Below are positions 16,579 through 62,581 of a stretch of 64,000 nt of DNA, one piece after another. The notes beneath the pieces were generated by a model, which was given only the letters and a program-made list of their open reading frames with translations, was not told the origin of the DNA and searched no databases. The position numbers and the translations under genes are program-made. Position 1 is the stretch's first letter, and every line of letters begins with the position of its first letter. The stretch comes from a phage. The stretch is from assembly GCA_024875585.1 (NCBI GenBank), contig GCA_024875585.1_4107.1; one strand, 5' to 3'.

Positions 16579-16790
16579 TCAACATCACATTGCAAGAAAG
16601 ATTCATCCGAATCAACTATGCAATTACCAAATTAGATGCTACTATAGGATTCCAAAGTCTACCGTTCCAAACAAGAATGATATTAGAGTGCGAAGCTAAA
16701 TTGGGTGTACTGTTAGGAACGCAACACCAACAACGATATGTGGAAATCTGGATTGATCTTTTAACCCAAAATGTACATGAGAAAATGTAA
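16575..16790 (+). CDS. Family A small paralog
   Basis: LLGTQHQQRYV; ATGA overlap. Confidence 0.65.
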   Translation: MINITLQERFIRINYAITKLDATIGFQSLPFQTRMILECEAKLGVLLGTQHQQRYVEIWIDLLTQNVHEKM

Positions 16791-17027
16791 ATGAAAAATG
16801 AAATGATATACTTAACGAATGAAGAGTTTCAAGAGAAGATGTTAAAAATCTATGATAATACTCTTGAGTACGTTCCAAATCAATCAATATATGAAGTGTC
16901 TGCGAATGTATTATTTCAGAAGCTACCATACGTTCTTGGAACGGATAAACAAGAATTTATGGTCAAAAATATGATTGAACATCTTATGATGAGTATTAAG
17001 GAAAAAGTGAATGCAAAAGAAAAATGA
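16791..17027 (+). CDS. Family A small paralog
   Basis: VLGTDKQEFMV. Confidence 0.6.
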   Translation: MKNEMIYLTNEEFQEKMLKIYDNTLEYVPNQSIYEVSANVLFQKLPYVLGTDKQEFMVKNMIEHLMMSIKEKVNAKEK

Positions 17028-17274
17028 AATGATATACTTAACACCTGCTGAGTTAACAGAAAGACTAGTTAAATCCAGAAGATATACAAATCAACTTCCT
17101 CACAACCCAAATCAAACCCCAGCGGAAAGGAGTGCAGAAGTTTTATTCCAATCACTACCATACCTTCTTGGAACTAATAGACAAGAGTATCATATCGAAC
17201 GTATAATTAAATATCTTAAAATTACTATTAAGGAAAAAGTAAATGCTCAAGAATTTAAAAATCCTAACAGTTAA
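17011..17274 (+). CDS. Family A small paralog
   Basis: LLGTNRQEYHI; near-duplicate N-terminus of the 16791 member. Confidence 0.6.
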   Translation: MQKKNEMIYLTPAELTERLVKSRRYTNQLPHNPNQTPAERSAEVLFQSLPYLLGTNRQEYHIERIIKYLKITIKEKVNAQEFKNPNS

Positions 17275-17485
17275 TGAATATCATAAGATTGTAATGAAAA
17301 CTAATAGTGCAATTTCTAAAAAATCAAACCCAAAGTACATACTGGAACACACATTTGAAGAACGTCAATTAGCTTTAGTTGAAGCAAAACTTCTTGCACT
17401 ATTAGGAACAAACTATCAGGAAGAATACATCAGAAAACTAATATACCTTTTAACTAAACACATCAGGAAAAGAAAAAAAGCATGA
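17243..17485 (+). CDS. Family A small paralog
   Basis: LLGTNYQEEYI. Confidence 0.6.
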   Translation: MLKNLKILTVNEYHKIVMKTNSAISKKSNPKYILEHTFEERQLALVEAKLLALLGTNYQEEYIRKLIYLLTKHIRKRKKA

Positions 17486-17712
17486 AGCACTTGACAGATG
17501 ATGAACATGGGCTTATAGTAATGGATGTAATCAACATCGAATACAAAAAGTTGATACGCTATCGTTGTTATGAAGATAAGCAACTAGTTCTAGCAGAACA
17601 GAAGTTGTTTCGACTCTTAAACACAAACTTCCAAGCACAATACGAAGAATCGTATATGTACCTTTTGGCGAGGAAAGCAAAAAGAGATTATGAAAATTTT
17701 AAGCAAAGGTGA
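17482..17712 (+). CDS. Family A small paralog
   Basis: LLNTNFQAQYE; N-terminus MKHLTDDEH shared with 14687 member. Confidence 0.6.
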   Translation: MKHLTDDEHGLIVMDVINIEYKKLIRYRCYEDKQLVLAEQKLFRLLNTNFQAQYEESYMYLLARKAKRDYENFKQR

Positions 17713-17911
17713 TTCAGTAATATTACTTATAGAGAGTTCAAATAAATTCTTAAACATAACACTGTCTGATATAGATGAAGATGATAAAGAAGTACTGAGA
17801 GCAGATTTAAGAGTACTGTTACATCTCGGAACAAACCTACAAGAAGAATATGTAGAGTACTACATTGATGAACTTAAAGAATCAGTACTGAGAAGATGCA
17901 AATGCGAATGA
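17690..17911 (+). CDS. Family A small paralog
   Basis: HLGTNLQEEYV. Confidence 0.6.
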   Translation: MKILSKGDSVILLIESSNKFLNITLSDIDEDDKEVLRADLRVLLHLGTNLQEEYVEYYIDELKESVLRRCKCE

Positions 17912-18123
17912 TTACCGACGAAGAATACCTAACAATTATAAATGGATTGTTTTTGAAGTTGTTTGTTATTAACACATCAGATATACCAGATATGGATAAA
18001 ATTATTAAGAGAAATGAAATCTATGTTCTAGCTACCCTGGGAACTAACTATCAAGAATGCAATATTAATGATTATATTAATACACTTAAAGGAGCGATTG
18101 AACTAAAATGCCAAAACCACTAG
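17896..18123 (+). CDS. Family A small paralog
   Basis: TLGTNYQECNI. Confidence 0.6.
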   Translation: MQMRMITDEEYLTIINGLFLKLFVINTSDIPDMDKIIKRNEIYVLATLGTNYQECNINDYINTLKGAIELKCQNH

Positions 18124-18323
18124 GAACAGCAGAATACATTGAACTCATGGGATTACACTTCTCATCCTTTCAGAAACTTATGCGAGAATCAAAGAATGAT
18201 TTAGAATATACCATCAGAGGTTCAGATTTAAGAATGCTTCTCACCCTAGACACAGATTCCCAAGAGAGATTTGTCAATGAGCATATTAGAGCACTTTTAA
18301 TGGAAATTAAAAGTAAACTATGA
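18108..18323 (+). CDS. Family A small paralog
   Basis: TLDTDSQERFV. Confidence 0.6.
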   Translation: MPKPLGTAEYIELMGLHFSSFQKLMRESKNDLEYTIRGSDLRMLLTLDTDSQERFVNEHIRALLMEIKSKL

Positions 18324-18535
18324 AGGTAATATCAAACCAAGAGTACTTGGCACTATTCAGGAAGAATAATCACAAATATATGGCACTTGATTCAAGAACT
18401 GATATAGGGGAACTTGAAAAAAATCTTTTGCGTTCAGAGATGATAGTACTGACACTCTTAGGAACACAACATCAAGAGAGAACTGTTGATTCATATATTG
18501 AGATTCTTAAGAAGCTTATACAGGAAAAACTATGA
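18320..18535 (+). CDS. Family A small paralog
   Basis: LLGTQHQERTV; ATGA overlap. Confidence 0.65.
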   Translation: MKVISNQEYLALFRKNNHKYMALDSRTDIGELEKNLLRSEMIVLTLLGTQHQERTVDSYIEILKKLIQEKL

Positions 18536-18762
18536 GAATCATAACACAAACAGACATATTTAAGTTAGCAAGGGAACATACATCTGAAATTGATGCTATA
18601 GTATCAAAAAGTTACAATGACCCTTATACACAAGATGTGCACTACAATGAATTATGGGTGTATATACTTTTAGGTACAAATTATCAAGAGCAAGCAGTAC
18701 AGAAGTATTTGGCAGCTTTAAGTACTGCTACTGCTAATAGTATAGGTATTAAAAAATGCTAG
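18532..18762 (+). CDS. Family A small paralog
   Basis: LLGTNYQEQAV; ATGA overlap. Confidence 0.65.
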   Translation: MRIITQTDIFKLAREHTSEIDAIVSKSYNDPYTQDVHYNELWVYILLGTNYQEQAVQKYLAALSTATANSIGIKKC

Positions 18763-18992
18763 TACTGACAGAACTAGAAATGTATCATAGATTTAATAAG
18801 TACTATCATTTACTTAAGCCTATACAGAGGATTAAATGTCCATTTGAAGAGAAACAGGTATTAATTTATGAGCATAAGTTATTTGTATCATTAGGTACGA
18901 ATGAACAAGAGTATTATTTGAAGTTGTACTTAATTACTTTAATTGAATTGATTAATCACAAAACACAGAAAGCTAAGAAATCTAAAAAATGA
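18756..18992 (+). CDS. Family A small paralog
   Basis: SLGTNEQEYYL. Confidence 0.6.
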   Translation: MLVLTELEMYHRFNKYYHLLKPIQRIKCPFEEKQVLIYEHKLFVSLGTNEQEYYLKLYLITLIELINHKTQKAKKSKK

Positions 18993-19327
18993 AAACTAAT
19001 ATTCAACTCAAGGTATACATATCTTATGAATCTATATACATCAAATGCAGTCTATGTAAAGATGTAATGGATTATAAAGGTAAGCCATTCACAATTACTT
19101 ACAGTCTAACAGGAGGCTTTTATATATCTTTTGTTGATTACGAAAATAAAATATACAAGCACATTGATATTAAAGATTTAAGTACCTTGTCAGATGAGGA
19201 ATACTTTCAAGAATCATTAGTATGGGATTTAGAGTTTCCTATGACATTAGTACACAAAATGATAGTACTAATGAAAGAAACTAAACCTGAGCCGAGTGGT
19301 TATGAAGAATTCATTATTGAGTATTAA
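18989..19327 (+). CDS. Family B paralog (E-E-x-F-Q-x-S-L-V-x-D motif protein)
   Basis: motif EEYFQESLVWD; first Family B member, embedded in Family A array. Confidence 0.6.
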   Translation: MKTNIQLKVYISYESIYIKCSLCKDVMDYKGKPFTITYSLTGGFYISFVDYENKIYKHIDIKDLSTLSDEEYFQESLVWDLEFPMTLVHKMIVLMKETKPEPSGYEEFIIEY

Positions 19328-19339
19328 GAGTACTGATAT

Positions 19340-19555
19340 ATGAAAAGATTATCATACAAAGATTACAGTAAACTTATCAGTACTTTACAACCAGAAATTA
19401 GAAGAATTAATTATCTTCCTATACCCAACGAAGAACGTGTAGTACTGAAAAATGAGTTAATATTAAAACGCACAGTAGGTACTAACTATCAAGATAATAG
19501 TGTTTGCGATTTAATTAGAGGGTTAATGATCACAATAAAGGCCAAGTGCTATTGA
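19340..19555 (+). CDS. Family A small paralog
   Basis: TVGTNYQDNSV. Confidence 0.6.
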   Translation: MKRLSYKDYSKLISTLQPEIRRINYLPIPNEERVVLKNELILKRTVGTNYQDNSVCDLIRGLMITIKAKCY

Positions 19556-19561
19556 CAGTAC

Positions 19562-19590
19562 TTGACGGAGCTTTTCATTACTGATATAGT
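19562..19590 (+). promoter_or_regulatory. sigma70-type promoter (TTGACG-N17-TATAGT)
   Basis: TTGACG 19562-19567, TATAGT 19585-19590, TG at -15/-14. Confidence 0.5.
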
Positions 19591-19619
19591 ACACTAACGT
19601 TAATCATAGGGTAGAAATT

Positions 19620-19865
19620 ATGTTAAAATTTTTAAATTTCCTTATCGTCTTGTGTATTGTTCTTGGGATTGCACCGTTTGTACTGGTGTATATGGATTCA
19701 GATGAAATGCAAAAGATGAATTGCACAAAGACGGGACAGAGTAGAGAAGAGACGATTCTTATGCCTGTTACTGTTATTGTTAATAATATGCCCATTACAA
19801 ACATGGTCCCTACCCTAACGACAACGTACCAGTACTCTTGTACAGACGGGGAGAGGTGGAGATGA
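19620..19865 (+). CDS. small membrane protein (81 aa)
   Basis: N-terminal hydrophobic helix FLNFLIVLCIVLGIAPFVLVY. Confidence 0.5.
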   Translation: MLKFLNFLIVLCIVLGIAPFVLVYMDSDEMQKMNCTKTGQSREETILMPVTVIVNNMPITNMVPTLTTTYQYSCTDGERWR

Positions 19866-20182
19866 AATTTAATATAGCAAAAACATCGAATGTATGTATA
19901 TTTGGTTATGCAGAAGAGTTAGGTGATATTGACATTCTTTTGTACAAAAAGGATGGTGTTATGCATTTCAAGTACCAGGATGAAGAGGCAGACAATTATC
20001 TTTTGCCTAATTTAGTACAAATGCAGGAAGAGGAATTATTCCAGTACAGCTTAGTATATGACATTGATATTTGCACGATGCCAGTACTAATTAATATTCA
20101 AAAAGTGATGCTCGATGTGTTTGATAGGCTAATACAAGGCACACAAGGAAGAACCATATATGTCAATGTACAAGACAATTAA
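19862..20182 (+). CDS. Family B paralog
   Basis: EELFQYSLVYD; start moved to ATG after SD GAGGTGGAG (track 19838). Confidence 0.6.
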   Translation: MKFNIAKTSNVCIFGYAEELGDIDILLYKKDGVMHFKYQDEEADNYLLPNLVQMQEEELFQYSLVYDIDICTMPVLINIQKVMLDVFDRLIQGTQGRTIYVNVQDN

Positions 20183-20375
20183 TCAAGAATGGAAGAATCA
20201 AAAGTACAGAGAATTCAATAGGAATTTTACAAAAGACGAATTGAATATAAAAACAACAGAATTTGATATGTTTATTTTTCTCGGAACACGTTCTCAGGAG
20301 CAATTTGTTCATTATTATATAAATTCGTTGCGAGCGGAGATAGTATGCAAAACAAAGGGTATTATAAAAAGGTAA
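20160..20375 (+). CDS. Family A small paralog
   Basis: FLGTRSQEQFV. Confidence 0.55.
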   Translation: MSMYKTINQEWKNQKYREFNRNFTKDELNIKTTEFDMFIFLGTRSQEQFVHYYINSLRAEIVCKTKGIIKR

Positions 20376-20611
20376 ACCAACATTTGTACGCTACAAAGTA
20401 CAGGGATTTTTGTTTAAAGGGTGGTGATGAAGATTTTTCTTTGCGATTATCAGAATTTAATCTGTTATTTTATCTTGGTACATCGGAACAAGAAGAAATG
20501 GCACAGAAATTTCTCAATCACCTTGTACAAAAAATTAATATGCAAATTTTGATGCTTAAGTTACAGGATGAGATAAATGAATATGAACCCAACAATAGTA
20601 CAGGATCTTAA
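20345..20611 (+). CDS. Family A small paralog
   Basis: YLGTSEQEEMA. Confidence 0.55.
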   Translation: MQNKGYYKKVNQHLYATKYRDFCLKGGDEDFSLRLSEFNLLFYLGTSEQEEMAQKFLNHLVQKINMQILMLKLQDEINEYEPNNSTGS

Positions 20612-30403: not shown

Positions 30404-30718
30404 ATGAAAAACTTATTCAGTGTTCAGTACGTTCCAGGTGAAATTAGTTTATTGTATCTCTTTGACCATGATAATTCATTATTACTAGTAGTAAAGAAAT
30501 GTCAAGCTAGTTCGTTTGTTGAATACATTCACGATAATGAATATATACCTGATTTTTTAGAGTGCGATTATTACGATGATCATGAATCATTTATTTTTCA
30601 GGAATCGCTAGTATGGGACAAATCGATTAACTTCTTTACGTTAATTGAATTACAAAAGCAAGTGAAGTATCATTGGGATTATTTAATTACACAGGATTAC
30701 ATTGAGATAGAAATATAA
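30404..30718 (+). CDS. Family B paralog
   Basis: SFIFQESLVWD; start moved to ATG after SD GAGGT (track 30380). Confidence 0.55.
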   Translation: MKNLFSVQYVPGEISLLYLFDHDNSLLLVVKKCQASSFVEYIHDNEYIPDFLECDYYDDHESFIFQESLVWDKSINFFTLIELQKQVKYHWDYLITQDYIEIEI

Positions 30719-30960
30719 TGACTAAAAATGAATTTGATTCACTTTGTACTGTTTATAATTCATTAACAGAAATACCTAACTTTATTAGTTATATTTCAGC
30801 TTTAAATCACATTATGCATAGTTTTGAACAATCGTTTGAAGAGAAATATGCTGGAAGAAAAGTTCTATGTCATATGCCAATGTACTTAGGAGATGGTGAG
30901 CCTTACACTACAAGTACTACATGTGAAATAAAAAATATAATATATTATTGGGTACTATAG
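30718..30960 (+). CDS. hypothetical protein (80 aa)
   Basis: ATGA-type overlap; no family motif. Confidence 0.45.
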   Translation: MTKNEFDSLCTVYNSLTEIPNFISYISALNHIMHSFEQSFEEKYAGRKVLCHMPMYLGDGEPYTTSTTCEIKNIIYYWVL

Positions 30961-31471: not shown

Positions 31472-32004
31472 TGAAAGTTAACATTAATGACTTTGATGCA
31501 TTACAAGATTTATCAAAAAAGATTCGCACCATCGTACCAGTACTTAAAAAATGCAGTACTGGTTTAATCGATCCTAGTTCTGTTGTCAATGAGAAGTACA
31601 ATTTTCATCGTGTATTACAGGGGACAGGTGCATTTCAGAAGTGTGAGGTACGTGAGAAACATGTAATTGATACATCGTTGTTTTCTATTGGTGCACCTGT
31701 GTCAAACAATACTATTTTCCTGGATGCCGCTGGAAATATTCAACAATTAACATTTAAGAAAAGGAAAAAGAATAATAACATTGGTGTGTACGAGATGAAG
31801 TGGGGACAGCCAGAGTTGATGCGTGACATTCACATTCCTAAGTACAATTTCAATGCATTTGAAGAACAGTGTTTTCAACTTTCTTGTACTGACCCTGACT
31901 ATGCTATCATTCAATTCTATATGGAATTGCAGATTGCATTTAATAGTAATTTGTATATTAACTTATTGGCAATGAACATAGATGAAGTATTCAAAAACAT
32001 TTAA
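31471..32004 (+). CDS. Family B paralog (divergent)
   Basis: EEQCFQLSCTD; start at ATG overlapping previous stop. Confidence 0.5.
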   Translation: MKVNINDFDALQDLSKKIRTIVPVLKKCSTGLIDPSSVVNEKYNFHRVLQGTGAFQKCEVREKHVIDTSLFSIGAPVSNNTIFLDAAGNIQQLTFKKRKKNNNIGVYEMKWGQPELMRDIHIPKYNFNAFEEQCFQLSCTDPDYAIIQFYMELQIAFNSNLYINLLAMNIDEVFKNI

Positions 32005-32200
32005 TCGAATTGAATACATGAGAACTGTGAGAGCGGTGTGGAATATATGGTACACTACTAAACCAAAAATGGATTACCATGATTTTAAGCTCTTGTTCTT
32101 TGTTGGCTCTAACAAACAGGATGTTGCAATGAAGGGTTATATTCAGCACTTACAGGAACTAATCCAGAAGAGAATATATGAAAATAATAGACCAAAATGA
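31982..32200 (+). CDS. Family A small paralog (displaced into Family B array)
   Basis: FVGSNKQDVAM. Confidence 0.5.
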   Translation: MKYSKTFNRIEYMRTVRAVWNIWYTTKPKMDYHDFKLLFFVGSNKQDVAMKGYIQHLQELIQKRIYENNRPK

Positions 32201-32369
32201 CATTGCTAAACTATTCAATATATATTCTACTAGAATGATGCAAACAGATTCATATAGTACTAAATTCAAAGAGTTGAAAGTACTGATGTACTTGGGAACA
32301 CAATATCAGGAACAAGTTATTTTAGAATATATTAATTCATTAAAGAAGGATATCCGTGATGTACGATGA
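32178..32369 (+). CDS. Family A small paralog (displaced into Family B array)
   Basis: YLGTQYQEQVI. Confidence 0.55.
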   Translation: MKIIDQNDIAKLFNIYSTRMMQTDSYSTKFKELKVLMYLGTQYQEQVILEYINSLKKDIRDVR

Positions 32370-41171: not shown

Positions 41172-41677
41172 GTTTATTAAATGCACGAGAATTAGTTGAG
41201 ATGTATGAGATCTTATCTTCATATAAAAATTCCCCAAAAGATGTAATTCTCAACAAAAAGTTCCATGTCAATGTTGATCATATGAAAAATATAGATATGA
41301 TTTCTTTAGTGGAAAGTAGTAAATCGGGTCTTGAGCGTGATATCATGCGTTTGATTTATATTACCAAACCATCATATACCAATGATAGTTCAATTAGTAA
41401 TGAGACGTTTTTGTACACTCCTTATACTGATTGTACTTTAGTTTCAGTGTCTAATCAGAAACAAGATAATTTCCAATTCATCTATACCAGTACTGACAAC
41501 ATTGAAGAAGTTGAATTCCAAAACAATACATTAAGTCCATGTGGTAGTGTTATAACTTTTATGTCGTATCTATGGTCATCTAAAACAAGTGCAATTGTAT
41601 ATAGTTCTAATTACACACAAGATAGTATTGTTGAATCATATAAAGCTCTGAAGGAATACTATGAAAATAACAAATGA
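41168..41677 (+). CDS. Family B paralog
   Basis: EVEFQNNTLSP; ATGA overlap. Confidence 0.55.
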   Translation: MSLLNARELVEMYEILSSYKNSPKDVILNKKFHVNVDHMKNIDMISLVESSKSGLERDIMRLIYITKPSYTNDSSISNETFLYTPYTDCTLVSVSNQKQDNFQFIYTSTDNIEEVEFQNNTLSPCGSVITFMSYLWSSKTSAIVYSSNYTQDSIVESYKALKEYYENNK

Positions 41678-42242
41678 TTTTTTTAAATGTTTAGTACACC
41701 CTATGCTTAGTGTTATGAAAAAATTACAGAATCTACCGGAAGACAACGATTACAAGTTTAATCGTTTTGATTCAGATGTGTTTTGTATTGAAATGGAAAT
41801 TAATAATAATCGTAATTTGCATTTAAAATTCAAAGAATCGTCAAGTCCGTATTACAACTTTGATATGAATTTTAAAATAGATACTGACATTGAAGAAAAC
41901 GTAATATCAAATCATACTAGCAAAAATGGTTTTAAGCATAGAACTACTATGTACAATAATAAAAATAGTATTATATCTAAATGGTTTCACCAATTCACCA
42001 AAATTGGTGAAATTGAATATAGTGATTTTGGTGAAGAGCAATACTTTCAGTTGAGTACAATTCATGAACTTCCACCATATGATTATGTTAAAACATGGTT
42101 TGATATTCATAATATAATTGATGATGCAATCAAACTTCCATTTGGGGTATCAATATCATATACTGCTCCTAAAACATTTGTTTTTACGGAAGATATGATT
42201 ATGAAAAAGATATGGGCAATTATCCCACTTATGATGGATTAA
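41661..42242 (+). CDS. Family B paralog
   Basis: EQYFQLSTIHE; start uncertain. Confidence 0.55.
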   Translation: MKITNDFFKCLVHPMLSVMKKLQNLPEDNDYKFNRFDSDVFCIEMEINNNRNLHLKFKESSSPYYNFDMNFKIDTDIEENVISNHTSKNGFKHRTTMYNNKNSIISKWFHQFTKIGEIEYSDFGEEQYFQLSTIHELPPYDYVKTWFDIHNIIDDAIKLPFGVSISYTAPKTFVFTEDMIMKKIWAIIPLMMD

Positions 42243-42248
42243 ATTTAT

Positions 42249-42274
42249 ACCAGGGGTTGACTCTGGTATTTTTG
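42249..42274 (+). terminator. weak terminator hairpin overlapping TTGACT promoter-like box
   Basis: ACCAG-loop-CTGGT then ATTTTTG. Confidence 0.35.
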
Positions 42275-42303
42275 TATGATACATTATCCTAAAGGAGAAT
42301 TTT

Positions 42304-42855
42304 ATGAACTACAATCATGATCTTTTTACATTATGTGCATCAAAATGTGTTGATGGTTGGGCAGATAAAATCAATACCATAATTCATCGATATCTCGTCT
42401 TTAGTTCCCGTGCACGAAGTGAGGGGGCTATGGATTTCAAATATACACTATCTATTGATGGTGTAACTATCCATGCAGACGAAGAACGTCTGAGCATTAA
42501 TTTGTATGATTCCTGTGTATTTGCTATTCACCAAAAGATGGGGAAAGGATGGGGTTGTAATAACATTAACTCCAAAGCTATCTTTTGGGTTGGTCACCAT
42601 CAGACAGTACTTGATCCTTCAATTAAATCTAATCTTTTATCCGATAATATGGTTTATGATTTATTGTACTCCGAAGAACAACATTTTCAATTAAGTACAT
42701 TGCATGATCTGGCACAGTACGAGGATTGTTACAAAACATTAGAACTATGCCATTCCCTTGAACTCAAAGATAAATTGATACAAGTTTACCCTTCATTCTT
42801 TCATGAAGAAGTACAATGCACACTAGAACATATTTTATATGGGTACGACAAATGA
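42304..42855 (+). CDS. Family B paralog
   Basis: EQHFQLSTLHD; SD AAAGGAGA. Confidence 0.65.
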   Translation: MNYNHDLFTLCASKCVDGWADKINTIIHRYLVFSSRARSEGAMDFKYTLSIDGVTIHADEERLSINLYDSCVFAIHQKMGKGWGCNNINSKAIFWVGHHQTVLDPSIKSNLLSDNMVYDLLYSEEQHFQLSTLHDLAQYEDCYKTLELCHSLELKDKLIQVYPSFFHEEVQCTLEHILYGYDK

Positions 42856-53374: not shown

Positions 53375-53650
53375 ATGAATTATAAATTTCTACAATATAC
53401 ATACACAATATTATTTGATTTACATCACAATGGACGATATATCAACACAATACGAGAAAACACATTTACTCATATGTTATGGATTGATTACTTAGAAACG
53501 ATTCGTGCATATTTTGTTAATACTGAGATAATCATTCGTGGTAAAAAACAGAAGATTCAACATGTTAATAGTTATGGTGGTAAATTAACTCTAACATTTA
53601 CCGATAATAATACTAATGAAATATGTTGTATCGAGTTGGTGAACATATGA
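53375..53650 (+). CDS. Family C small protein
   Basis: N-terminal FLQYTYTILFDL, C-terminal GGKLTLTFTD; SD AAGGGGAAAT. Confidence 0.6.
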   Translation: MNYKFLQYTYTILFDLHHNGRYINTIRENTFTHMLWIDYLETIRAYFVNTEIIIRGKKQKIQHVNSYGGKLTLTFTDNNTNEICCIELVNI

Positions 53651-53913
53651 ATTATAAAGATTTCCAATTAACATATAAGATTATTCGCAATCTAGCACAC
53701 AGCAATAATAGCCCTAGTCTAGAAGACACATGCACAGAAATGATCCATACGATTCGTGCAAAGATTGAAGAAAATTTCAGTACTGTTATTATTAATGATG
53801 ACCATGCAGAATTTTCTGATATAATCATTAGACGTGATGGTAAAGTTGAGGTTCAGTACTACACTGATTTTGGATTTACAAGTGTACCGTTGGAGATATT
53901 CCCTTGGGATTAA
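53647..53913 (+). CDS. Family C small protein
   Basis: MNYKDFQLTYKII; start at ATGA overlap (track 53623). Confidence 0.55.
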   Translation: MNYKDFQLTYKIIRNLAHSNNSPSLEDTCTEMIHTIRAKIEENFSTVIINDDHAEFSDIIIRRDGKVEVQYYTDFGFTSVPLEIFPWD

Positions 53914-54215
53914 ATTTAAATGATATACAATTCACTTATAAGGTACTATATGATTTGTATGATGCATACCTTGTTAGTAACAAAATAGGTTCACATAACC
54001 CAACCAAAGAACAATCATTTATTGATTTATATATTGAGTACTTAGATTCTATTGAAAACTATCTCAAAAAGAATTACAGTACTTTTATCGATGGAAATGA
54101 TACATTCGATTTCTATGGTGTGCAATCATATGATGGTATAATCCATGTTCAATTTCAGGAAAGAACCGATAGGGAATTTATCGAAATTAAAGTTGTGAAG
54201 TTGGTGAATTTATAA
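53904..54215 (+). CDS. Family C small protein
   Basis: LNDIQFTYKVLYDLY; non-ATG (TTG) start, uncertain. Confidence 0.45.
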   Translation: MGLNLNDIQFTYKVLYDLYDAYLVSNKIGSHNPTKEQSFIDLYIEYLDSIENYLKKNYSTFIDGNDTFDFYGVQSYDGIIHVQFQERTDREFIEIKVVKLVNL

Positions 54216-54225
54216 GAGGTTACAT

Positions 54226-54537
54226 ATGTTATTAAATGATATACAATTTACATACAAATTTTTGTATATCCAATTCGCAACGGTTGATGCTGGTGAATAT
54301 ATCTACAGTGAAGTTTATCGTTCGATATGGATAAAGTTTTTAGATGAATTACATGAATATTACCATGATTTGCGTATAGTTCGTAATAATAAAATATACA
54401 AATTCCGCGATATTGTTAGTCATAGCGGTAAGCTACGATTGGAATTAAGTACTGATAGTGATGTTGATTGGATTGGTGTAAATTTACTGGAGTTGGAGAA
54501 TGAAAAGCAACTTAAAGGAAATACAAGTATTTTATAA
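54226..54537 (+). CDS. Family C small protein
   Basis: MLLNDIQFTYKFLY. Confidence 0.6.
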   Translation: MLLNDIQFTYKFLYIQFATVDAGEYIYSEVYRSIWIKFLDELHEYYHDLRIVRNNKIYKFRDIVSHSGKLRLELSTDSDVDWIGVNLLELENEKQLKGNTSIL

Positions 54538-54784
54538 ATTCTTATACTTGTCATATGTTAAAGATGAGTACTATGAAAGTGTGTATTATTTTTTATGGCA
54601 ACATTACCGTACTATAGTAAGAGATTTATATCTAGGAAAATCTATCATATACAATGGTGAAAAATGTACATGTACGGATGTAGTTAGTTTTAATGGTTCT
54701 TTAACACTGTGTTTCAGATGCGATAATAATAGTGGGTCATTTTCATTAAACGTATATCAGTTAGAAGGAATAAATTTTGAATAA
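54500..54784 (+). CDS. Family C small protein
   Basis: LKEIQVFYKFLY; SD GGAGA. Confidence 0.55.
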   Translation: MKSNLKEIQVFYKFLYLSYVKDEYYESVYYFLWQHYRTIVRDLYLGKSIIYNGEKCTCTDVVSFNGSLTLCFRCDNNSGSFSLNVYQLEGINFE

Positions 54785-54977
54785 GTGTCCATATTGTAAC
54801 AGTACTCAATTAGCTCGTTTCCGTTTAGATTCAGACTGGGCAACTGGTGCTGGGGATTTCTTCCCTATTAATGATGATGCGGAATACACCGAAGAACAAC
54901 ACAAAGATTTTGATAAATCATGGCGACCGGACATTGAGTGCATTTATTGCCTTAATTGTGAGCGTGTCCATGACTAA
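54777..54977 (+). CDS. small zinc-ribbon protein (66 aa)
   Basis: CPYC-x44-CIYCLNC; TTG start, uncertain. Confidence 0.4.
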   Translation: MNKCPYCNSTQLARFRLDSDWATGAGDFFPINDDAEYTEEQHKDFDKSWRPDIECIYCLNCERVHD

Positions 54978-55233
54978 AGCTGAACTAATAGTTCATACAT
55001 ATAAAATGATATCAAGTACTGAGTTATCATATAGTGAAGATAATCCGGTACTGGATTATTTTGTGGAATTATTGAAAGACCATTATATTGGTAAATCACT
55101 GAATCTTAATAATATTAATTTCACTGTAAAGGATGTAGCACCAGGTAAAAACGTACTAATAGTATGTGTTACTTCATCTGATAACCCAGTATACCCAATA
55201 TCAATAACTTTTGAGATATTAGGGGATGTATGA
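54970..55233 (+). CDS. Family C-like small protein (87 aa)
   Basis: start moved to ATG 54970 (track 54847); MTKAELIVHTYKMI. Confidence 0.5.
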   Translation: MTKAELIVHTYKMISSTELSYSEDNPVLDYFVELLKDHYIGKSLNLNNINFTVKDVAPGKNVLIVCVTSSDNPVYPISITFEILGDV

Positions 55234-55982: not shown

Positions 55983-56022
55983 AAAGGGTAAGGAACAATA
56001 ATTAACACAAGGAGTGTGTGAA

Positions 56023-56751
56023 ATGCTTGACCGTATCCGTTTCGCTACAGAGATGGCGAATGAATTAAACATGGCAAATTTCCAAATGTTAACATCAGTA
56101 ATGGCTGAACATGCATGTGCTTATTCTGTAAGTGGTGTGCAGTGTGGTCAGGAGAATATGTTAGCAGATGTTTATAGTGAAGTACAAAGTAAGCAATATA
56201 GTGTAAAGACTTACAAGGACAAGTTTGTAAGTCTTTACATGAATGAAGATATTAAAGAAGATCGTAAATTCACTGATTTTATTATTGAACGTCGAGTATC
56301 GGGTGTATCTAATCCTAATGCATCAAGTGATGAAGTCTTTGCGGAAGTACTTCAAGATATATATGAAAATGAATTGAAAAGTAAGAATCATTACAATGTA
56401 CGTGAAACTAGCACAGTGCTCTTGGGATATGATGAAGACGAACAATATTATTATTTCCGTATGACTGAAGTTCCATTTGAATATAAATCACCAAACACCA
56501 CATCAGTTAAAGAATTTACTGAAAAAAGTAAAAATTACATGAAACATGAAGGTAATCGCTGTAGTGTGAATGGTTATGATGAAAATGGTGTTCATGTTTA
56601 CGAGTGGATTCATCCTAACTGTCAGACATACACCCGTTGCTTGAAAAAACGTTATAATTTAGAAGAGCATGACTCATTCTATTTTAAGGTAAAGAAACAA
56701 GATTACCGTCGCCCTGATGATTCTGAATTAATGGGGATGGTCTATTTCTAA
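56023..56751 (+). CDS. hypothetical protein (242 aa)
   Basis: ATG 8 nt after SD AAGGAG (track GTG 56014). Confidence 0.65.
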   Translation: MLDRIRFATEMANELNMANFQMLTSVMAEHACAYSVSGVQCGQENMLADVYSEVQSKQYSVKTYKDKFVSLYMNEDIKEDRKFTDFIIERRVSGVSNPNASSDEVFAEVLQDIYENELKSKNHYNVRETSTVLLGYDEDEQYYYFRMTEVPFEYKSPNTTSVKEFTEKSKNYMKHEGNRCSVNGYDENGVHVYEWIHPNCQTYTRCLKKRYNLEEHDSFYFKVKKQDYRRPDDSELMGMVYF

Positions 56752-57046: not shown

Positions 57047-57053
57047 AAATATA

Positions 57054-57077
57054 GGCCAGCGTTTGCTGGTCTTTTTT
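57054..57077 (+). terminator. rho-independent terminator
   Basis: GGCCAGC-GTTT-GCTGGTC then TTTTTT. Confidence 0.7.
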
Positions 57078-57090
57078 CGCAGGTACAAAG

Positions 57091-57393
57091 ATGATCAGTA
57101 TAGATTTAATTGATAGTACTATAAAAATGTTGGCTGATTTAGTGAGACAATCCAATGAAACTTTATACCAATCAATGTATAAAATGTTTGACCGATACAT
57201 CAAGGATTGTAACATATCATTATATGGACTTGCTGTTGATATAGACGATTACTATGGTATTAATACTTCATATGAAACAGGAATTTTAATTGGTATTAAT
57301 ATAAAGATGGGATATTATCCTTATTACTGTATAGGATTACCAGATAATACGTTGGTAGAATATCCAGCCAGTACTATTAAATTAAGAGGATAA
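57091..57393 (+). CDS. hypothetical protein (100 aa)
   Basis: ORF after terminator. Confidence 0.55.
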   Translation: MISIDLIDSTIKMLADLVRQSNETLYQSMYKMFDRYIKDCNISLYGLAVDIDDYYGINTSYETGILIGINIKMGYYPYYCIGLPDNTLVEYPASTIKLRG

Positions 57394-57400
57394 AACTAAA

Positions 57401-57979
57401 ATGAATGTATTAGAATTAAGTACGAAGCTGATTAGTATGCGTAACGAGTGGTACGATTGGTTTTATAATGGTACTGATATGGATTTTTCAAAATATCCAT
57501 TTATGGAATCAGGATGTGATTCAAGATACCGCTGGTTGAGCAAAAGTGGTTCTGGTTTATTCATTCGTGTTGATGATAGTGGTCGAGGAATTATAAAAGA
57601 TTTCATTCAAGTTGAAGAACTCGTCTATGATAATTGGGGTGATAACGATCCATACCTTGGAAATATGATTTATGTAAGTGAAAATGATTGCATATTCGTT
57701 ATCCAGCGTCATGGTGATTCTATGTTTTATGTAGCGGACAACAATACACCTGACGGTGCAGCAGCCGATGGACTTATGCCTAAGATTGATATATTGGAAT
57801 TTGGATTACCTGAGCATTTTCAGATTAGTACTTTATACGATATCCCACCACTTGAGTTCTTTGAAGAATTTAAATTATACTACAATGAACTTCAAAAATT
57901 GAGTTCTGAACATCGAATTGAAATAACAGTCAAGTACATAGATGGGACAAAATTAACCGATACGGGGATAGAATTTTGA
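57401..57979 (+). CDS. Family B paralog (distal copy)
   Basis: PEHFQISTLYDIPP. Confidence 0.55.
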   Translation: MNVLELSTKLISMRNEWYDWFYNGTDMDFSKYPFMESGCDSRYRWLSKSGSGLFIRVDDSGRGIIKDFIQVEELVYDNWGDNDPYLGNMIYVSENDCIFVIQRHGDSMFYVADNNTPDGAAADGLMPKIDILEFGLPEHFQISTLYDIPPLEFFEEFKLYYNELQKLSSEHRIEITVKYIDGTKLTDTGIEF

Positions 57980-58665
57980 TTAAAGATTTAGATAGAATTT
58001 TATATGTACTAAGGGGTGTAATTACATTACATCCACACATCAATCGAATTGAAAGTACATTTCAGTTGGAGTCAAGAGAAACTCAATATTCACATATATC
58101 AAATGTAGTTGGCTCACTTAGTACTGAAGACTCGCCTTACGATATTTGTGTATGTGAAGTACAACCAAGTTCGGATCTTGGATTTGCTATTTTTGATAAA
58201 AATCAAAATCTCATTAGTATGTTTCAGTGCAATAATCCTTTTTGGAAAACATGCCTGTATCCAGAGTGGGCTATGCTTGATCCAACCAAGAGCACCATTA
58301 AAGTTTATGACTCTAAAAATGATGAAGTCGTTATTGATTTGGATGAGTCAATGTCCGAGGAAGAACACTTTCAGCTAATGATGATGCGTGCTATGCCTGA
58401 ATACAATGCAATGATTAACACTGTGCAATACATTAAGGATACCATGCCATCATTGCGTACACATGAGTTTTGTCATCCGGTATTGTATGAACATTTAGAT
58501 TTAGATTTCAGTACTATTAAATTTAAAGATAGTGTCATTGAGTATATCCAAGAGGTTACTAAATTCGATTTCATTAGTACAATGAATAATAACCCTGAAA
58601 CAAATTTCAGACGACAATACAATGAATCTTTGTCTAATGGACGTGATACAAGTTGGTGGAAATAA
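57976..58665 (+). CDS. Family B paralog (distal copy)
   Basis: EEHFQLMMMRA; ATGA overlap. Confidence 0.55.
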   Translation: MIKDLDRILYVLRGVITLHPHINRIESTFQLESRETQYSHISNVVGSLSTEDSPYDICVCEVQPSSDLGFAIFDKNQNLISMFQCNNPFWKTCLYPEWAMLDPTKSTIKVYDSKNDEVVIDLDESMSEEEHFQLMMMRAMPEYNAMINTVQYIKDTMPSLRTHEFCHPVLYEHLDLDFSTIKFKDSVIEYIQEVTKFDFISTMNNNPETNFRRQYNESLSNGRDTSWWK

Positions 58666-58666
58666 T

Positions 58667-58930
58667 ATGAATATTCAAGATAGATTACAATTACTATACA
58701 CTATTGAACAGGCTGCTTTTGAACTTGTTAATAAAATCTCCGAAGAACTTCCCAAAGGAACTATAGTTCGTGTACGTGAGAGGGATTATGAATCTGGAGA
58801 AATTGAAGAACTAGTACTGACCGTGAATAAAGTAACATACTATGAATCTGAGTTGGCTATCCAATGTAGATCGGAAGATGGTAAAATATACTATTATGAC
58901 ACTGGTGTAGATATAGAGGTAATAAAATGA
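58667..58930 (+). CDS. hypothetical small protein (87 aa)
   Basis: start moved to ATG after SD GGTGGA (track 58622). Confidence 0.55.
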   Translation: MNIQDRLQLLYTIEQAAFELVNKISEELPKGTIVRVRERDYESGEIEELVLTVNKVTYYESELAIQCRSEDGKIYYYDTGVDIEVIK

Positions 58931-60069
58931 CCCTTTTGCAAATATATGAAGATTTAATGCACTTGTGCAATACAAACGATGCGTTCTTTTATGTGGATCA
59001 TAAAAGTCCTGCTGGTGGAACGTATCGTGTATTCAGTTATCGTCTAGCATCATATACTGATTTCATGCAACCCAATGCATTAGAAACCCGTGGATCTATG
59101 TGGGAAATTGATGAAGAAGGTAATATGATTCGTTGTGCTGCTCGTACTATGAAAAAGTTCTTTAATGCTTACGAGAATCCTGCTACAATGTTCCCTGCTA
59201 ACACCACATGCGATGACATTGCAGTAGTGATGCCTAAATTGGATGGTTCAGTGATCAGTACTTACCGTGACAATGATGGTGAGATTCGTTGTAAATCACA
59301 TACTGCATTGTATTCTGACCATGCGATTAACAGTACTCGACTTATTAACGAGAACCAGAATCTATATCAGTACATCGATGAAGCTGAACGTTTAGGTTAC
59401 ACAGTTAATATGGAGTATACAAGCCCAGAGTACCGAATTGTATTACCGTATCAGGTAGAACAATTGTTTGTGCTGAACGTTCGTCATCGTGTAAGTGGTG
59501 AGTTGCTATGTGGTAAAGCATTACGTGATAAGTTTCCATGTCTTTCACAGTACAGCACTAATATGACAGGAAAAGATATTCATCACACTTTTCCTGTGCG
59601 AAATTCATTCCGTGAAAGCGTTGATGAAGTTCATAAAATGCTTGACATTGAGGGTTTTGTTTGCATTTTAAAAGATGGGACAATGTGTAAAATAAAGACT
59701 GACTGGTACAGTTCATTACATCTTACAAAAGATAGTATTATTATTGATTCTCATTTATATGAAGCTGTATTAAATGGTTCAAGTGATGATTTAAAACAAT
59801 TGTTCAGTTCTGACGAATATGCTATGCAAAAGATATTAAGAATGGAACAGTTGGTTTTTTCGTGCTATAATGCATTACAAGATGAAGTAGAAAGCTTCGT
59901 CAATGAACACAAGCACTTAGAGCGAAAGGAATTCGCATTGAAGGTTCAGACGTGCTTATCTAGTGAACTGAATCGTCAGGGCTTGGCATTTGCAATGTAT
60001 AATAATAAGAAAGTTGATTACAAAGATACACTTATCAAATACATGAAAATTATACTAAAAGATTTTTAG
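58927..60069 (+). CDS. rnlA: RNA ligase 1 (T4 Rnl1-like, ATP-dependent)
   Basis: FFY.D..S..G.TYR.FSY..ASY N-terminal block, nucleotidyl-lysine motif PKLDGS, and overall colinearity with T4 Rnl1 from memory. Confidence 0.85.
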   Translation: MTLLQIYEDLMHLCNTNDAFFYVDHKSPAGGTYRVFSYRLASYTDFMQPNALETRGSMWEIDEEGNMIRCAARTMKKFFNAYENPATMFPANTTCDDIAVVMPKLDGSVISTYRDNDGEIRCKSHTALYSDHAINSTRLINENQNLYQYIDEAERLGYTVNMEYTSPEYRIVLPYQVEQLFVLNVRHRVSGELLCGKALRDKFPCLSQYSTNMTGKDIHHTFPVRNSFRESVDEVHKMLDIEGFVCILKDGTMCKIKTDWYSSLHLTKDSIIIDSHLYEAVLNGSSDDLKQLFSSDEYAMQKILRMEQLVFSCYNALQDEVESFVNEHKHLERKEFALKVQTCLSSELNRQGLAFAMYNNKKVDYKDTLIKYMKIILKDF

Positions 60070-60099
60070 TACTAACTAGCCTAAGCACAAGGAGAAGTG

Positions 60100-60354
60100 A
60101 TGGCTAAACCTAAGTATAAAAATGACGGTTCCCTTTCTCCAACTGAGTTCAGGAAAATACAACAAGAAATCGATGAATTACAGCACAAACGCTCAATGAA
60201 AGGTGTGAAGATAAGTAAGAAGAGAATCGAGAATACTTTCGGATGTAGTAGTACTGAATATAAGAAGAAAAGGAAACCGAAGGGTGTTAAGCCGAGAATA
60301 CATGATGTAACTCGCTATACATCAAAACGTGAAAATAAATTTGATCCACTATAA
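60100..60354 (+). CDS. small basic protein (84 aa)
   Basis: ATG after SD AAGGAGAAG; Lys/Arg-rich. Confidence 0.55.
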   Translation: MAKPKYKNDGSLSPTEFRKIQQEIDELQHKRSMKGVKISKKRIENTFGCSSTEYKKKRKPKGVKPRIHDVTRYTSKRENKFDPL

Positions 60355-60363
60355 GGAGTTCAT

Positions 60364-60594
60364 ATGAAAGTTGAAGTTCAGCATAGTATTGTTCAAGATA
60401 TGTCTGTAGTTAAATTTCTTTCATTAAAAGATTACTTTAGATGTATCAAGTTCCTAGAAGAATCTCATTTAAAATGGACTCCATTAAAGTACAGTTCATC
60501 CAAAGACACTGCTAGTATTCGTTGTGATGAAGCTGTACTCGTAAAAATCTCTAAAAGATTTGGGATAGGTAAAGTGAATGAGCACAGTAAATGA
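60364..60594 (+). CDS. hypothetical protein (76 aa)
   Basis: ORF+SD AAGGAG. Confidence 0.6.
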   Translation: MKVEVQHSIVQDMSVVKFLSLKDYFRCIKFLEESHLKWTPLKYSSSKDTASIRCDEAVLVKISKRFGIGKVNEHSK

Positions 60595-60832
60595 ACTAAA
60601 ATACTACAACAAAATTGCGGATACGTTTATTACTCATTTATATGAAGAATTCAGTAGTATCCGCAAGGAATATACAGGTAAATGTATTTTATATAGTTCT
60701 TATCTTAGTGGAAGAATTGAACGTGCTTACATTACTAAAGTGAAGTTTTCTGATGATTATCAATTACTATTTGAATTGGATGATTGTTTAGTCATTGAAG
60801 CTGATTTAATAGTAGATGTGCTGAACAATTGA
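60578..60832 (+). CDS. hypothetical protein (84 aa)
   Basis: ORF overlapping upstream gene by 17 nt. Confidence 0.5.
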   Translation: MSTVNELKYYNKIADTFITHLYEEFSSIRKEYTGKCILYSSYLSGRIERAYITKVKFSDDYQLLFELDDCLVIEADLIVDVLNN

Positions 60833-60838
60833 GGACAT

Positions 60839-61153
60839 ATGAATAAAGAACTTGCATATAAGGGTATCGAAAAGCTAAAGTTCGTTGAAAAGGAACTAAT
60901 AGAATCAGTTGAAACAATGGTTGAAGATTACGTTTTTGATTTTAAGAAAACATTAATTGGATGTAAAGTCAAATGCTGGGATCATACCATTAGAGAATGG
61001 TTCAGTGCTATAATTCTTGATGTTAAAGTATCTCGAACTGGTATTGGTAACTTAGTAAATGGTGAATGCTTTGTATACACTGAATACAATAACGGTACAA
61101 GACACCTTTCAAAAGGATGGCACAATCTCGAAGATGTAGAATTCATTGAGTAA
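60839..61153 (+). CDS. hypothetical protein (104 aa)
   Basis: ORF+SD GAGGACAT. Confidence 0.6.
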   Translation: MNKELAYKGIEKLKFVEKELIESVETMVEDYVFDFKKTLIGCKVKCWDHTIREWFSAIILDVKVSRTGIGNLVNGECFVYTEYNNGTRHLSKGWHNLEDVEFIE

Positions 61154-61165
61154 CAAGGAGTAATA

Positions 61166-62098
61166 ATGCCAACTATCACCTTAACAATTGGGTTGCCTGG
61201 GTGTGGTAAAACTACATGGGCAGTGCAAGAGATTAAAAACGCCAAATCTAAGACTATCAACATCAACCGTGATGATATTCGTGAATCTATGGCGGGGTCA
61301 CATGATGCTTACAAATTCAACGATGCTAATGAGCAGTACGTAACTACTTTACAGTTCAGTGCAGCAAATTTAGCAGCAGAGAATGGTTGGAACATCATCA
61401 TATCCGATACGAACCTTAAACAACATTTCCGTGATCTCTGGAAAGTATGGGCTAAAGATAATGATTATGATTACAAAGAAAAGAACTTCTATGATGATTT
61501 TGTACCTAATGAAGACCGTGGTGCAGATGTTCATGAATTCTTTAAGATTAAAGAGTTCGTAAAACTTTGTAAGAAATATAACCGCCAGCGTGAGCGTTCA
61601 GTACAAGATAATATCATTGACACTATGGCAGATACTTACTATTATAGTAAAGCAATGCACATTGGTTACTATGGTAATTCAAGAGAAGCCGCTGTTATCG
61701 TTGATATTGACGGAACTCTTGCTCATAAATGGGGTCGTAATCCTTACGATGAAAGTACTGTACTACAAGATACACCAGATGAAGAAGTTATTTTGTCTAT
61801 TATCGCTGAAGCAGTTTTCCATAAACGTAAGATTATTGTAATGAGTGGGCGTACTGAAGGGTGTCGTGCAGACACAGAACAGTGGCTTAAGAATTGGGGT
61901 GTTCCTTACGATGCATTGTTTATGCGAGGCATCGATGATAAACGACCCGATGATGTGGTAAAATATGAGTTGTATATGAATAACGTCGTGCATCATTACG
62001 ATGTTAAAAAAGTATACGATGACAGATCACAAGTCGTATTCATGTGGCGTAAACTACTTGGATTAAAAGTGATGCAAGTTGCAGAAGGAAATTTCTGA
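61166..62098 (+). CDS. pseT: polynucleotide 5'-kinase / 3'-phosphatase (T4 Pnk-like)
   Basis: P-loop GLPGCGKTT, NINRDD, and HAD-phosphatase motif DIDGTLA; colinear with T4 Pnk from memory. Confidence 0.85.
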   Translation: MPTITLTIGLPGCGKTTWAVQEIKNAKSKTININRDDIRESMAGSHDAYKFNDANEQYVTTLQFSAANLAAENGWNIIISDTNLKQHFRDLWKVWAKDNDYDYKEKNFYDDFVPNEDRGADVHEFFKIKEFVKLCKKYNRQRERSVQDNIIDTMADTYYYSKAMHIGYYGNSREAAVIVDIDGTLAHKWGRNPYDESTVLQDTPDEEVILSIIAEAVFHKRKIIVMSGRTEGCRADTEQWLKNWGVPYDALFMRGIDDKRPDDVVKYELYMNNVVHHYDVKKVYDDRSQVVFMWRKLLGLKVMQVAEGNF

Positions 62099-62105
62099 CA
62101 CAAAA

Positions 62106-62129
62106 GGGATCAATGTATGATCCCTTTTT
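62106..62129 (+). terminator. rho-independent terminator
   Basis: GGGATCA-ATGTA-TGATCCC then TTTTTC. Confidence 0.75.
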
Positions 62130-62147
62130 CTTTTAAGGTATATTATA

Positions 62148-62324
62148 ATGAATGTAAAAACACAGATGTTATTACAAAAAGAATACTTAGAAAATATAGA
62201 AATGTTCTATAGATTGTCTTTATACGAAAATAAACATAAAAAATATAACTTTTCTAAACAACTAACCACAAGTACTAATGATTATCTATTTTCATCAATG
62301 TTTTATGTGAGAGGTTTATTATAA
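62148..62324 (+). CDS. hypothetical small protein (58 aa)
   Basis: ORF below cutoff; TAATG overlap with next gene. Confidence 0.4.
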   Translation: MNVKTQMLLQKEYLENIEMFYRLSLYENKHKKYNFSKQLTTSTNDYLFSSMFYVRGLL

Positions 62325-62581
62325 TGGATAAATTTCACACAGATATAACACAGATAGGTAATCTTATCAATAGTCTAATTACTGATTTAGAAGAAAAGTA
62401 CTTAGGTCGAAATGTATACGTTGAAATGTATGAAACATATGGTGTTATTGATATGATTTATTACAGTGCATTGAAGTGTGAAATACGTTTAACAGTATGT
62501 TTGTTTGAAAAAGATACATTCAACAGAAGTACTGCAATTCGTCAGGTTGGTGTAGATGACATTGAATTATATGAGGAATAA
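62324..62581 (+). CDS. hypothetical small protein (85 aa)
   Basis: ORF; resembles neighbours (KYLGRNVYVEMY). Confidence 0.55.
   Translation: MDKFHTDITQIGNLINSLITDLEEKYLGRNVYVEMYETYGVIDMIYYSALKCEIRLTVCLFEKDTFNRSTAIRQVGVDDIELYEE

Follow-up and report, generated by a model that had tools for sequence, protein, structure and literature searches.

Does a jumbo coliphage encode a T4-type pathway for the repair of cleaved tRNA, and do the small genes lodged between the two repair enzymes take part in it? This question is raised by a locus in a 64,000-nucleotide stretch of phage DNA (GenBank assembly GCA_024875585.1, contig GCA_024875585.1_4107.1), hereafter called the window, in which the genes of a predicted RNA ligase 1 (Rnl1) and a predicted polynucleotide kinase/phosphatase (Pnk) lie in the same orientation at a distance of 1.1 kb, with four small open reading frames (ORFs), named s1 to s4, between them. 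A sequence-only reading of the window had proposed this pair and this arrangement, and all six ORFs were indeed seen at the proposed positions on the + strand, the four small ones spanning 60097-61153. Our analysis favors, with a probability of roughly 0.8, a T4-type heal-and-seal RNA repair cassette in which nuclease-cut tRNA would be healed by Pnk and resealed by Rnl1.

Identification of the Two RNA Repair Enzymes

The product of the first gene matched the Pfam family PF09511 (RNA_lig_T4_1; E = 1.1e-14, 55.3 bits against a threshold of 28.3), the PHROG family phrog_562 (7e-108), and the NCBIfam equivalog TIGR02308, which corresponds to the T4 RnlA family (297.7 bits, cutoff 242.25), as well as the T4 Rnl1 structures 2c5u (E = 5.7e-58), 5tt6, and 9do4 (all about 6e-58). 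Its C-terminal domain (residues 268-379, nucleotides 59728-60063) was recognized by PF20819 (T4_Rnl1_C; E = 6.1e-17) over profile positions 1-113 of 122. In T4 Rnl1, this domain confers specificity for the tRNA anticodon loop, and tRNA repair is the physiological role of the enzyme (PMC6379707). No Rnl2 or DNA ligase family competed for the protein in the profile searches, and the assignment made by the sequence-only reading withstood the check that it had itself named, the matches being to the Rnl1-specific families PF09511, PF20819, and TIGR02308.

The catalytic residues were located in two ways, through pairwise comparison with the T4 protein and through an alignment of the family that included seven orthologs from jumbo phages. 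The predicted nucleotidyl-lysine is K104 in the KLDGS motif (residues 104-108, nucleotides 59236-59250), which aligned with K99 of the T4 motif KEDGS, with D106 and G107 kept. E163, E242/G243, and K255/K257 matched E159, E227/G228, and K240/K242 of T4 motifs III, IV, and V, respectively, and R55, K77, and F79 matched the N-terminal ATP contacts R54, K75, and F77, the roles of R54 and K75 having been described for the T4 enzyme (PMC6379707). Eleven of the 12 T4 positions that were checked were kept in the window and in six further jumbo lineages, and the ratio of nonsynonymous to synonymous substitution rates (dN/dS) of the gene was 0.05-0.08 within the genus Asteriusvirus. On these sequence grounds, we assign the protein to the T4 RnlA family of RNA ligase 1.

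The last gene of the locus was analyzed in the same manner. Its product matched the phosphatase family PF25109 (HAD_PNKP; 3.5e-44, profile positions 2-143 of 143), the P-loop kinase domain AAA_33 (3.9e-13), and PHROG 505 (2.4e-94), and both of its domains were covered by the T4 Pnk structure 1ltq (E = 7.8e-38). The P-loop GLPGCGKTT occupies residues 9-17 (nucleotides 61190-61216) and the HAD phosphatase motif DIDGTLA residues 180-186 (nucleotides 61703-61723). The kinase residues K15, T16, D36, and R39 matched T4 K15, S16, D35, and R38. In the phosphatase half, D180, D182, and T184 of the DIDGT motif were kept together with R191, R229, D262, and D286, the T4 counterparts checked besides DxDGT being R176, R213, D254, and D278. 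Within Asteriusvirus, the dN/dS of pnk was 0.08-0.14. The protein is thus predicted, with both halves and their catalytic residues in place as the sequence-only reading had it, to be a T4-type bifunctional polynucleotide 5'-kinase/3'-phosphatase. The three motifs pointed out in that reading (KLDGS, GCGKTT, and DIDGTLA) were all found, and nearly all catalytic residues of the two enzymes were intact. The similarity of both proteins to the T4 structures is much greater than chance would give.

Conservation of the Cassette in Related Jumbo Phages

The locus was compared in eight cultured phages, namely the phage of the window, phAPEC6, EJP2, an Erwinia Eneladusvirus, GAP32, Munch, XaC1, and RaK2. 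In these loci of 8-13 kb, only Rnl1, s1, s2, and Pnk were common to all eight, always in the same order, and the surrounding small ORFs were freely replaced. The comparison was extended by profile searches to 17 loci representing about 14 lineages, which comprised the eight cultured phages, UE-S1 and 121Q, and seven metagenomic contigs picked because they carried the most divergent s1 homologs. Rnl1 and Pnk were linked in all 17 loci, and s1 lay directly 3' of Rnl1 in every one of them, down to an Rnl1 identity of 38%. The s2 gene was present in 14 of the 17. The order Rnl1-s1-[middle gene]-[s2]-[0-3 ORFs]-Pnk was observed throughout (17/17), in at least five genera and in the metagenomic lineages, and the clade that carries the cassette infects at least eight host genera.

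The "middle" gene, of about 75 amino acids, lies between s1 and s2 in 10 of the 17 loci, and was lost from the lineage of the window and from RaK2. Copies were located at 7386-7616 in locus L005 (Erwinia phage pEa_SNUABM_49), 3764-3988 in L007 (GAP32), 3764-3991 in L008, 3770-3994 in L009, and 3762-3983 in L010, and further ones were found by profile in L011, L013, and L015. Three metagenomic loci (L013, L014, and L016) contain a minimal cassette without s2, consisting of Rnl1, s1, a gene of 74-78 amino acids, and Pnk. Downstream of this cassette lie genes for a calcineurin-like metallophosphatase and an ATP-dependent DNA ligase.

Two other genes were observed near the cassette. An ORF of 245 amino acids without a family match, located at 56014-56751 of the window, a few genes upstream of the cassette, was kept with about 48% identity or more in most lineages, including the metagenomic L013 and L014, and was the sole other widely common gene near the cassette. 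A homolog of the anti-Gabija protein Gad2 is encoded two to three genes upstream of Rnl1 in Eneladusvirus (L005, pEa_SNUABM_49, 3576-4631), in GAP32 (L007, 16-879), and in one metagenomic relative (L015, 1-1058), with 37% identity to the SPbeta-type Gad2 (E = 5e-46) and a Pfam Gad2 match in L015. No copy of Gad2 was found in the window.

A Heal-and-Seal Model and Its Alternatives

From the T4 system, we infer the enzymatic activity, the tRNA substrate, and the counter-defense role of the pair. According to this model, a host anticodon nuclease would nick the anticodon loop of a tRNA, leaving 2',3'-cyclic phosphate and 5'-OH ends. The phosphatase domain of Pnk, through D180 and D182 of DIDGT, would take off the 3' phosphate, and the 5' end would be phosphorylated by the P-loop kinase domain of the same protein (K15, D36, and R39). 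Rnl1, adenylylated on K104 and guided to the tRNA by its C-terminal domain, would then pass AMP to the 5' phosphate and reseal the anticodon loop. Repair of the tRNA would restore translation, and the abortive-infection defense would be beaten.

Several points weigh against this model. For this phage and for the whole clade, it is built entirely on homology to T4. The window Rnl1 has H125 at the position of T4 K119, a lysine presumably essential in alanine scanning of the T4 enzyme, which a literature search could not confirm, and which does not belong to the motifs that define the family. This position is occupied by His in five of seven jumbo lineages, by Lys in XaC1, and by Asn in EJP2, and an invariant Lys is found two residues upstream of the H125 column; we consider the His to be a clade-wide substitution and not a lesion. 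In Pnk, the T4 lid residue R126 was not cleanly aligned, with Q141 or a Tyr in its column in the pairwise and MAFFT alignments, and a 15-residue insertion before the kinase lid adjoins this column. R142, invariant in seven jumbo sequences, lies one position off T4 R126 in the ungapped HMMER alignment and is probably the lid arginine. Regarding the small genes, no fold or family match of s1 or s2 pointed to RNA, Rnl1, or Pnk, and s2 is absent from the L013/L014/L016 lineage. Finally, T4 gp63/Rnl1 is bifunctional, acting as a ligase and, in a non-catalytic manner, in the promotion of tail-fiber attachment.

This last property could mean that Rnl1 is retained mainly for tail-fiber attachment, with RNA repair being secondary or absent. 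The dual function of T4 gp63 is mirrored in database product names, these jumbo phages have elaborate fibers (PMC7824862), and the His at the T4 K119 position would be compatible with such a role. However, the residues of the nucleotidyl-transfer motifs were all invariant across the clade, which a non-catalytic role would not demand. Moreover, Rnl1 was always linked to the end-healing Pnk and sits among small non-structural ORFs rather than in a structural module. We consider retention mainly for tail-fiber attachment improbable.

Defenses that cleave tRNA include PrrC, RloC, PARIS, retrons, HEPN nucleases, and OLD. The universal retention of the cassette over at least eight host genera fits the idea that they are a major pressure on phages. 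Alternatively, the pair may serve the RNA or DNA ends of the phage itself, through the processing of phage tRNA or mRNA or general damage repair, instead of acting against a host anticodon nuclease. Genes for tRNAs, a CCA-adding enzyme, and Pth2 are present in relatives (PMC3622015), and Prr is found in only some E. coli strains (PMC7247149), even though the cassette occurs throughout the clade. On the other hand, no physiological role of the T4 pair other than the repair of nuclease-cut tRNA has been established (PMC6379707, PMC12445682), tRNA-targeting defenses are numerous and widespread enough to explain universal retention, and an anti-defense gene, the Gad2 homolog, stands beside the cassette in some relatives. 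A role restricted to the phage's own nucleic acids seems unlikely to us, and the repair of tRNA cut by host nucleases remains the preferred interpretation.

The Conserved Small Genes s1 and s2

The sequence-only reading had described the four small proteins as unannotated candidates for accessory or anti-nuclease functions. The first part of this description did not hold, since they are annotated in relatives, albeit as hypothetical proteins, and three of the four belong to PHROG families. The second has to be divided: s1 and s2 are conserved members of the cassette, and s3 and s4 are lineage-specific inserts. No identifiable function was found for any of the four.

The s1 protein is basic, with an isoelectric point (pI) of 10.2 and 24 Lys/Arg residues. 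Its AlphaFold2 model consists of a long helix (residues 14-45) and short helices, with a predicted local distance difference test score of 80.7 and a predicted template modeling score of 0.47. The s1 homologs formed 65 clusters, every one of short proteins, and all nine homologs whose genomic context was examined sit in an Rnl1/Pnk cassette. The family corresponds to phrog_15306, which has no named function, and searches of Pfam, NCBIfam, PADLOC, the PDB, and known folds gave no meaningful match to s1. The s2 protein is predicted to form a compact beta-beta-alpha-beta-beta-alpha domain, and its invariant residues are H7, S8, Q11, D12, Y43, S44, S45, S51, R53, and E56. Six additional remote relatives of s2, retrieved by an exhaustive hidden Markov model search, were rejected as spurious, the matches being to multiple stretches of long repetitive proteins.

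No homologs of s1 or s2 were found outside the RaK2-like jumbo-phage clade. In particular, tblastn searches with both proteins detected no T4-like phage, though more than 1,500 T4-like phages encode Rnl1, and neither protein showed similarity to Hen1 or to another known subunit of a repair complex. Within Asteriusvirus, dN/dS was 0.02-0.03 for s1 and 0.05-0.08 for s2, and purifying selection on these genes is as strong as on both enzymes. Between genera, s1 and s2 are conserved to the same degree as the enzymes, with identities of 59% for s1 and 66% for s2, as compared with 59% for Rnl1 and 56% for Pnk.

Two kinds of explanation may be considered for this pattern. In the first, s1 and s2 would assist or regulate the repair enzymes in this clade, for example in the binding of the RNA substrate or the bridging of the enzymes. 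It is suggested by strict linkage and constraint, but a fixed position in a compact phage operon can mean mere co-inheritance; we advance it tentatively and give hitch-hiking in such an operon at least an equal chance. A broader version, which we find somewhat more doubtful, is that three to five components, encoded as a cassette, make up the repair machine, with s1 and s2 as unrecognized subunits or regulators and with a slot that exchanges small acidic anti-defense proteins (s3 and s4). In such a cassette, s1 and s2 might recruit nicked tRNA, bridge ligase and kinase, or block the host nuclease.

In the second explanation, s1 and s2 would be unrelated to RNA repair and would be small early proteins, perhaps of host-takeover or nucleic-acid-binding type, that belong to a co-inherited and co-transcribed block. 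They lack any link by homology or fold to RNA repair components, and s2 was dispensable in one lineage (L013/L014/L016). A non-repair gene, the 245-amino-acid ORF, is likewise kept nearby in most lineages, and the T4 genes in the same position (alc, the spanins, and pseT.1) are functionally unrelated to repair. Such an explanation accounts less readily for the finding that the four universal genes in eight phages are precisely Rnl1, s1, s2, and Pnk while their neighbors are replaced freely, for the adjacency of Rnl1 and s1 down to the most divergent ligases, and for dN/dS values as low as those of the enzymes. We give it about an even chance.

A Variable Slot between s2 and Pnk

The region between s2 and Pnk differed markedly between lineages. 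The s3 gene was confined to 121Q-type Asteriusviruses, with no copy in phAPEC6/PBECO4-type relatives or in other genera, and its product had no match in PHROG, Pfam, NCBIfam, PADLOC, or the PDB. The s4 family (phrog_31355, without a named function) was found in 32 records, all of Escherichia phages. The dN/dS values within Asteriusvirus were about 0.19 for s3 and about 0.18 for s4.

Positions 60581-61166 of the window were the sole stretch of an 8.4-kb region without a nucleotide match in phAPEC6. In that phage, s3 and s4 (585 nucleotides) are swapped for a single gene of 312 nucleotides (L002, 4964-5276), which encodes gp373, an s4 allele of 37% identity that occupies the slot in the PBECO4-type subclade, and the flanking DNA is about 92% identical. 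In most genera the slot is empty, whereas that of RaK2 and that of L017 each contain three unrelated ORFs. These comparisons identify the s2-Pnk slot as a hot spot of insertion and replacement, with s3 and s4 as lineage-specific cargo.

Gene Order, Transcription Context, and Identity of the Phage

The features of the locus are listed in Table 1. Each of the six genes carries a Shine-Dalgarno sequence at proper spacing. The start of s1 was placed at the ATG at 60100 and not at the GTG at 60097 because the former follows AAGGAG by 7 nucleotides and is the start annotated in relatives. The start of s3 overlaps the end of s2 by 17 nucleotides. All four small ORFs are real genes, as indicated by the ribosome-binding site on each and by dN/dS values of 0.02-0.19 against close relatives.

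Table 1. Features of the RNA repair locus in the window. Positions are those of the 64,000-nucleotide stretch.
Feature	Position	Strand	Description
Terminator-like hairpin	57053..57072	+	8-bp stem with 5 G-C pairs, TTTTTT tail
Rnl1	58927..60069	+	380 amino acids; predicted T4 RnlA/gp63 family (family and structure matches, catalytic residues)
s1	60100..60354	+	84 amino acids; basic; directly 3' of Rnl1
s2	60364..60594	+	76 amino acids; alpha/beta; between s1 and Pnk
s3	60578..60832	+	84 amino acids; acidic, pI 4.7; lineage-specific insert
s4	60839..61153	+	104 amino acids; acidic, pI 5.4; Asteriusvirus only
Pnk	61166..62098	+	310 amino acids; predicted T4 PseT family (P-loop kinase and HAD phosphatase)
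Intrinsic terminator	62102..62128	+	11-bp stem followed by a T-run; 4 nucleotides past the Pnk stop

Two hairpins with T-runs flank the region. The other terminator-like sites within 57053-62128 had no T-run, and no strong terminator separated Rnl1 from Pnk. In UE-S1, terminators are annotated at places matching both hairpins, and in Salmonella phage Munch at the place matching 62102-62128. The downstream terminator is predicted to form the 3' end of the transcription unit of the cassette, and the hairpin at 57053-57072 is likely its upstream boundary. In view of the flanking hairpins and of the terminators annotated in UE-S1 and Munch, the cassette probably belongs to a single transcription unit, of which it would form the distal part, together with four upstream ORFs (57091-58930). 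The Shine-Dalgarno sequence on every gene, the overlapping or abutting frames, and the two hairpins make co-transcription of Rnl1, s1, s2, s3, s4, and Pnk plausible. A promoter scan performed no better than on shuffled sequence (50 sites against 52.5 expected), and for this reason no promoter is proposed.

Over 58600-62400, nucleotide identity was 97.6% with Escherichia phage UE-S1 and about 92% with 121Q, slurp01, phAPEC6, PBECO4, and others. All of them are jumbo phages of the genus Asteriusvirus with genomes of about 350 kb, and by this similarity we assign the phage of the window to the Asteriusvirus (121Q-like) jumbo coliphages. The identity to UE-S1 was 100% from s1 through 62835, with 99.6% for Pnk, and only 86-96% for Rnl1 and the genes upstream of it (from 57091), a step suggestive of recent recombination with a breakpoint close to the 3' end of Rnl1. 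Nearly all ORFs of at least 60 amino acids in the window (1-64000) are on the + strand, and the GC skew was positive all along. Neither tRNA genes nor Rfam families at the gathering threshold were detected in the 64 kb.

Several groups of paralogs were observed elsewhere in the window by all-against-all phmmer comparison (E <= 1e-3 for the largest). The first comprises 30 ORFs of about 65-95 amino acids on the + strand, arranged almost head-to-tail at 13121-20611 (with 31982-32369) in a very large tandem multigene array. A second family of 24 members, of about 100-240 amino acids, extends in tandem over about 20 kb (18989-40743). Smaller groups are a five-member group at 53375-55233, a three-member family at 41661-42855 whose third copy (57401-57979) lies inside the terminator-bounded unit of Rnl1, and a pair at 30718-30960 and 62324-62581. 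The large families exclude s1-s4. Several nearby ORFs of 85-100 amino acids look similar by eye, but phmmer found no paralog of s1-s4 in the window even at E <= 10, and this relationship was discarded.

Relation to Previous Reports

The enzyme pair itself is already known and is not new. Both genes are annotated in more than 30 GenBank relatives, as "RnlA family RNA ligase" and "polynucleotide 5'-kinase and 3'-phosphatase". The RaK2 genome paper of 2013 described the orthologs as "two RNA repair proteins" (PMC3622015), an anti-Prr role was proposed for those of phAPEC6 in 2020 (PMC7247149), and a survey of 2021 presented Rnl1 together with a kinase-HAD phosphatase as standard RNA repair equipment of jumbo phages (PMC7824862). 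What our comparison adds is modest, namely a conserved Rnl1-s1-(middle)-s2-Pnk cassette with a variable slot that holds s3 and s4 in the window. Should s1 and s2 prove to act together with the enzymes, they would represent the first phage-encoded accessory factors of the Rnl1/Pnk pathway to be described.

Comparison with Known Systems

The direct orthologs of the window Rnl1 and Pnk are gp464 and gp470 of RaK2, gp438 and gp443 of 121Q, gp376 and gp372 of phAPEC6, and GAP32_080 and GAP32_084. In phAPEC6, Rnl1 and Pnk are 96% and 93% identical to the window proteins, and in the Erwinia Eneladusvirus 59% and 56%, respectively. These RaK2-like relatives share the cassette order of the window and differ in the content of the slot, which holds s3 and s4 in the window, one divergent s4 allele in PBECO4-type phages, and three other ORFs in RaK2. 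Most other genera have an empty slot and, in addition, the middle gene that is missing from the window.

T4 RnlA and PseT, the tRNA repair pair that counters the anticodon nuclease PrrC, share both family membership and domain architecture with the proteins of the window, which are 36-37% (Rnl1) and 34-42% (Pnk) identical to them. The gene order and direction are also the same, with the ligase first, the kinase last, and four genes in between in both phages. However, the intervening genes of T4 are alc, the spanin genes pseT.3 and pseT.2, and pseT.1, whereas the window has the unrelated s1-s4. A synteny of the small ORFs with those of T4 was considered and rejected as one of position only, BLASTP of s1-s4 against the four T4 genes giving E > 1 in all cases and profile comparison of s1 and s2 with alc, pseT.3, pseT.2, and pseT.1 by hhalign giving probabilities below 1%. 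The enzymes of the window also differ from those of T4 by the His at the K119 position of Rnl1 and by the 15-residue insertion before the kinase lid of Pnk.

The bacterial Pnkp1-Rnl-Hen1 and Pnkp/Hen1 systems resemble the window in that they are heal-and-seal systems with kinase/phosphatase and ligase encoded together, and the window Pnk matched Capnocytophaga Pnkp1 (PDB 4xrp) over its full length (E = 1.4e-30). Unlike these systems, the window has no Hen1 methyltransferase, and its ligase is of the Rnl1 type. The bacterial systems reportedly show that a repair complex can include additional subunits.

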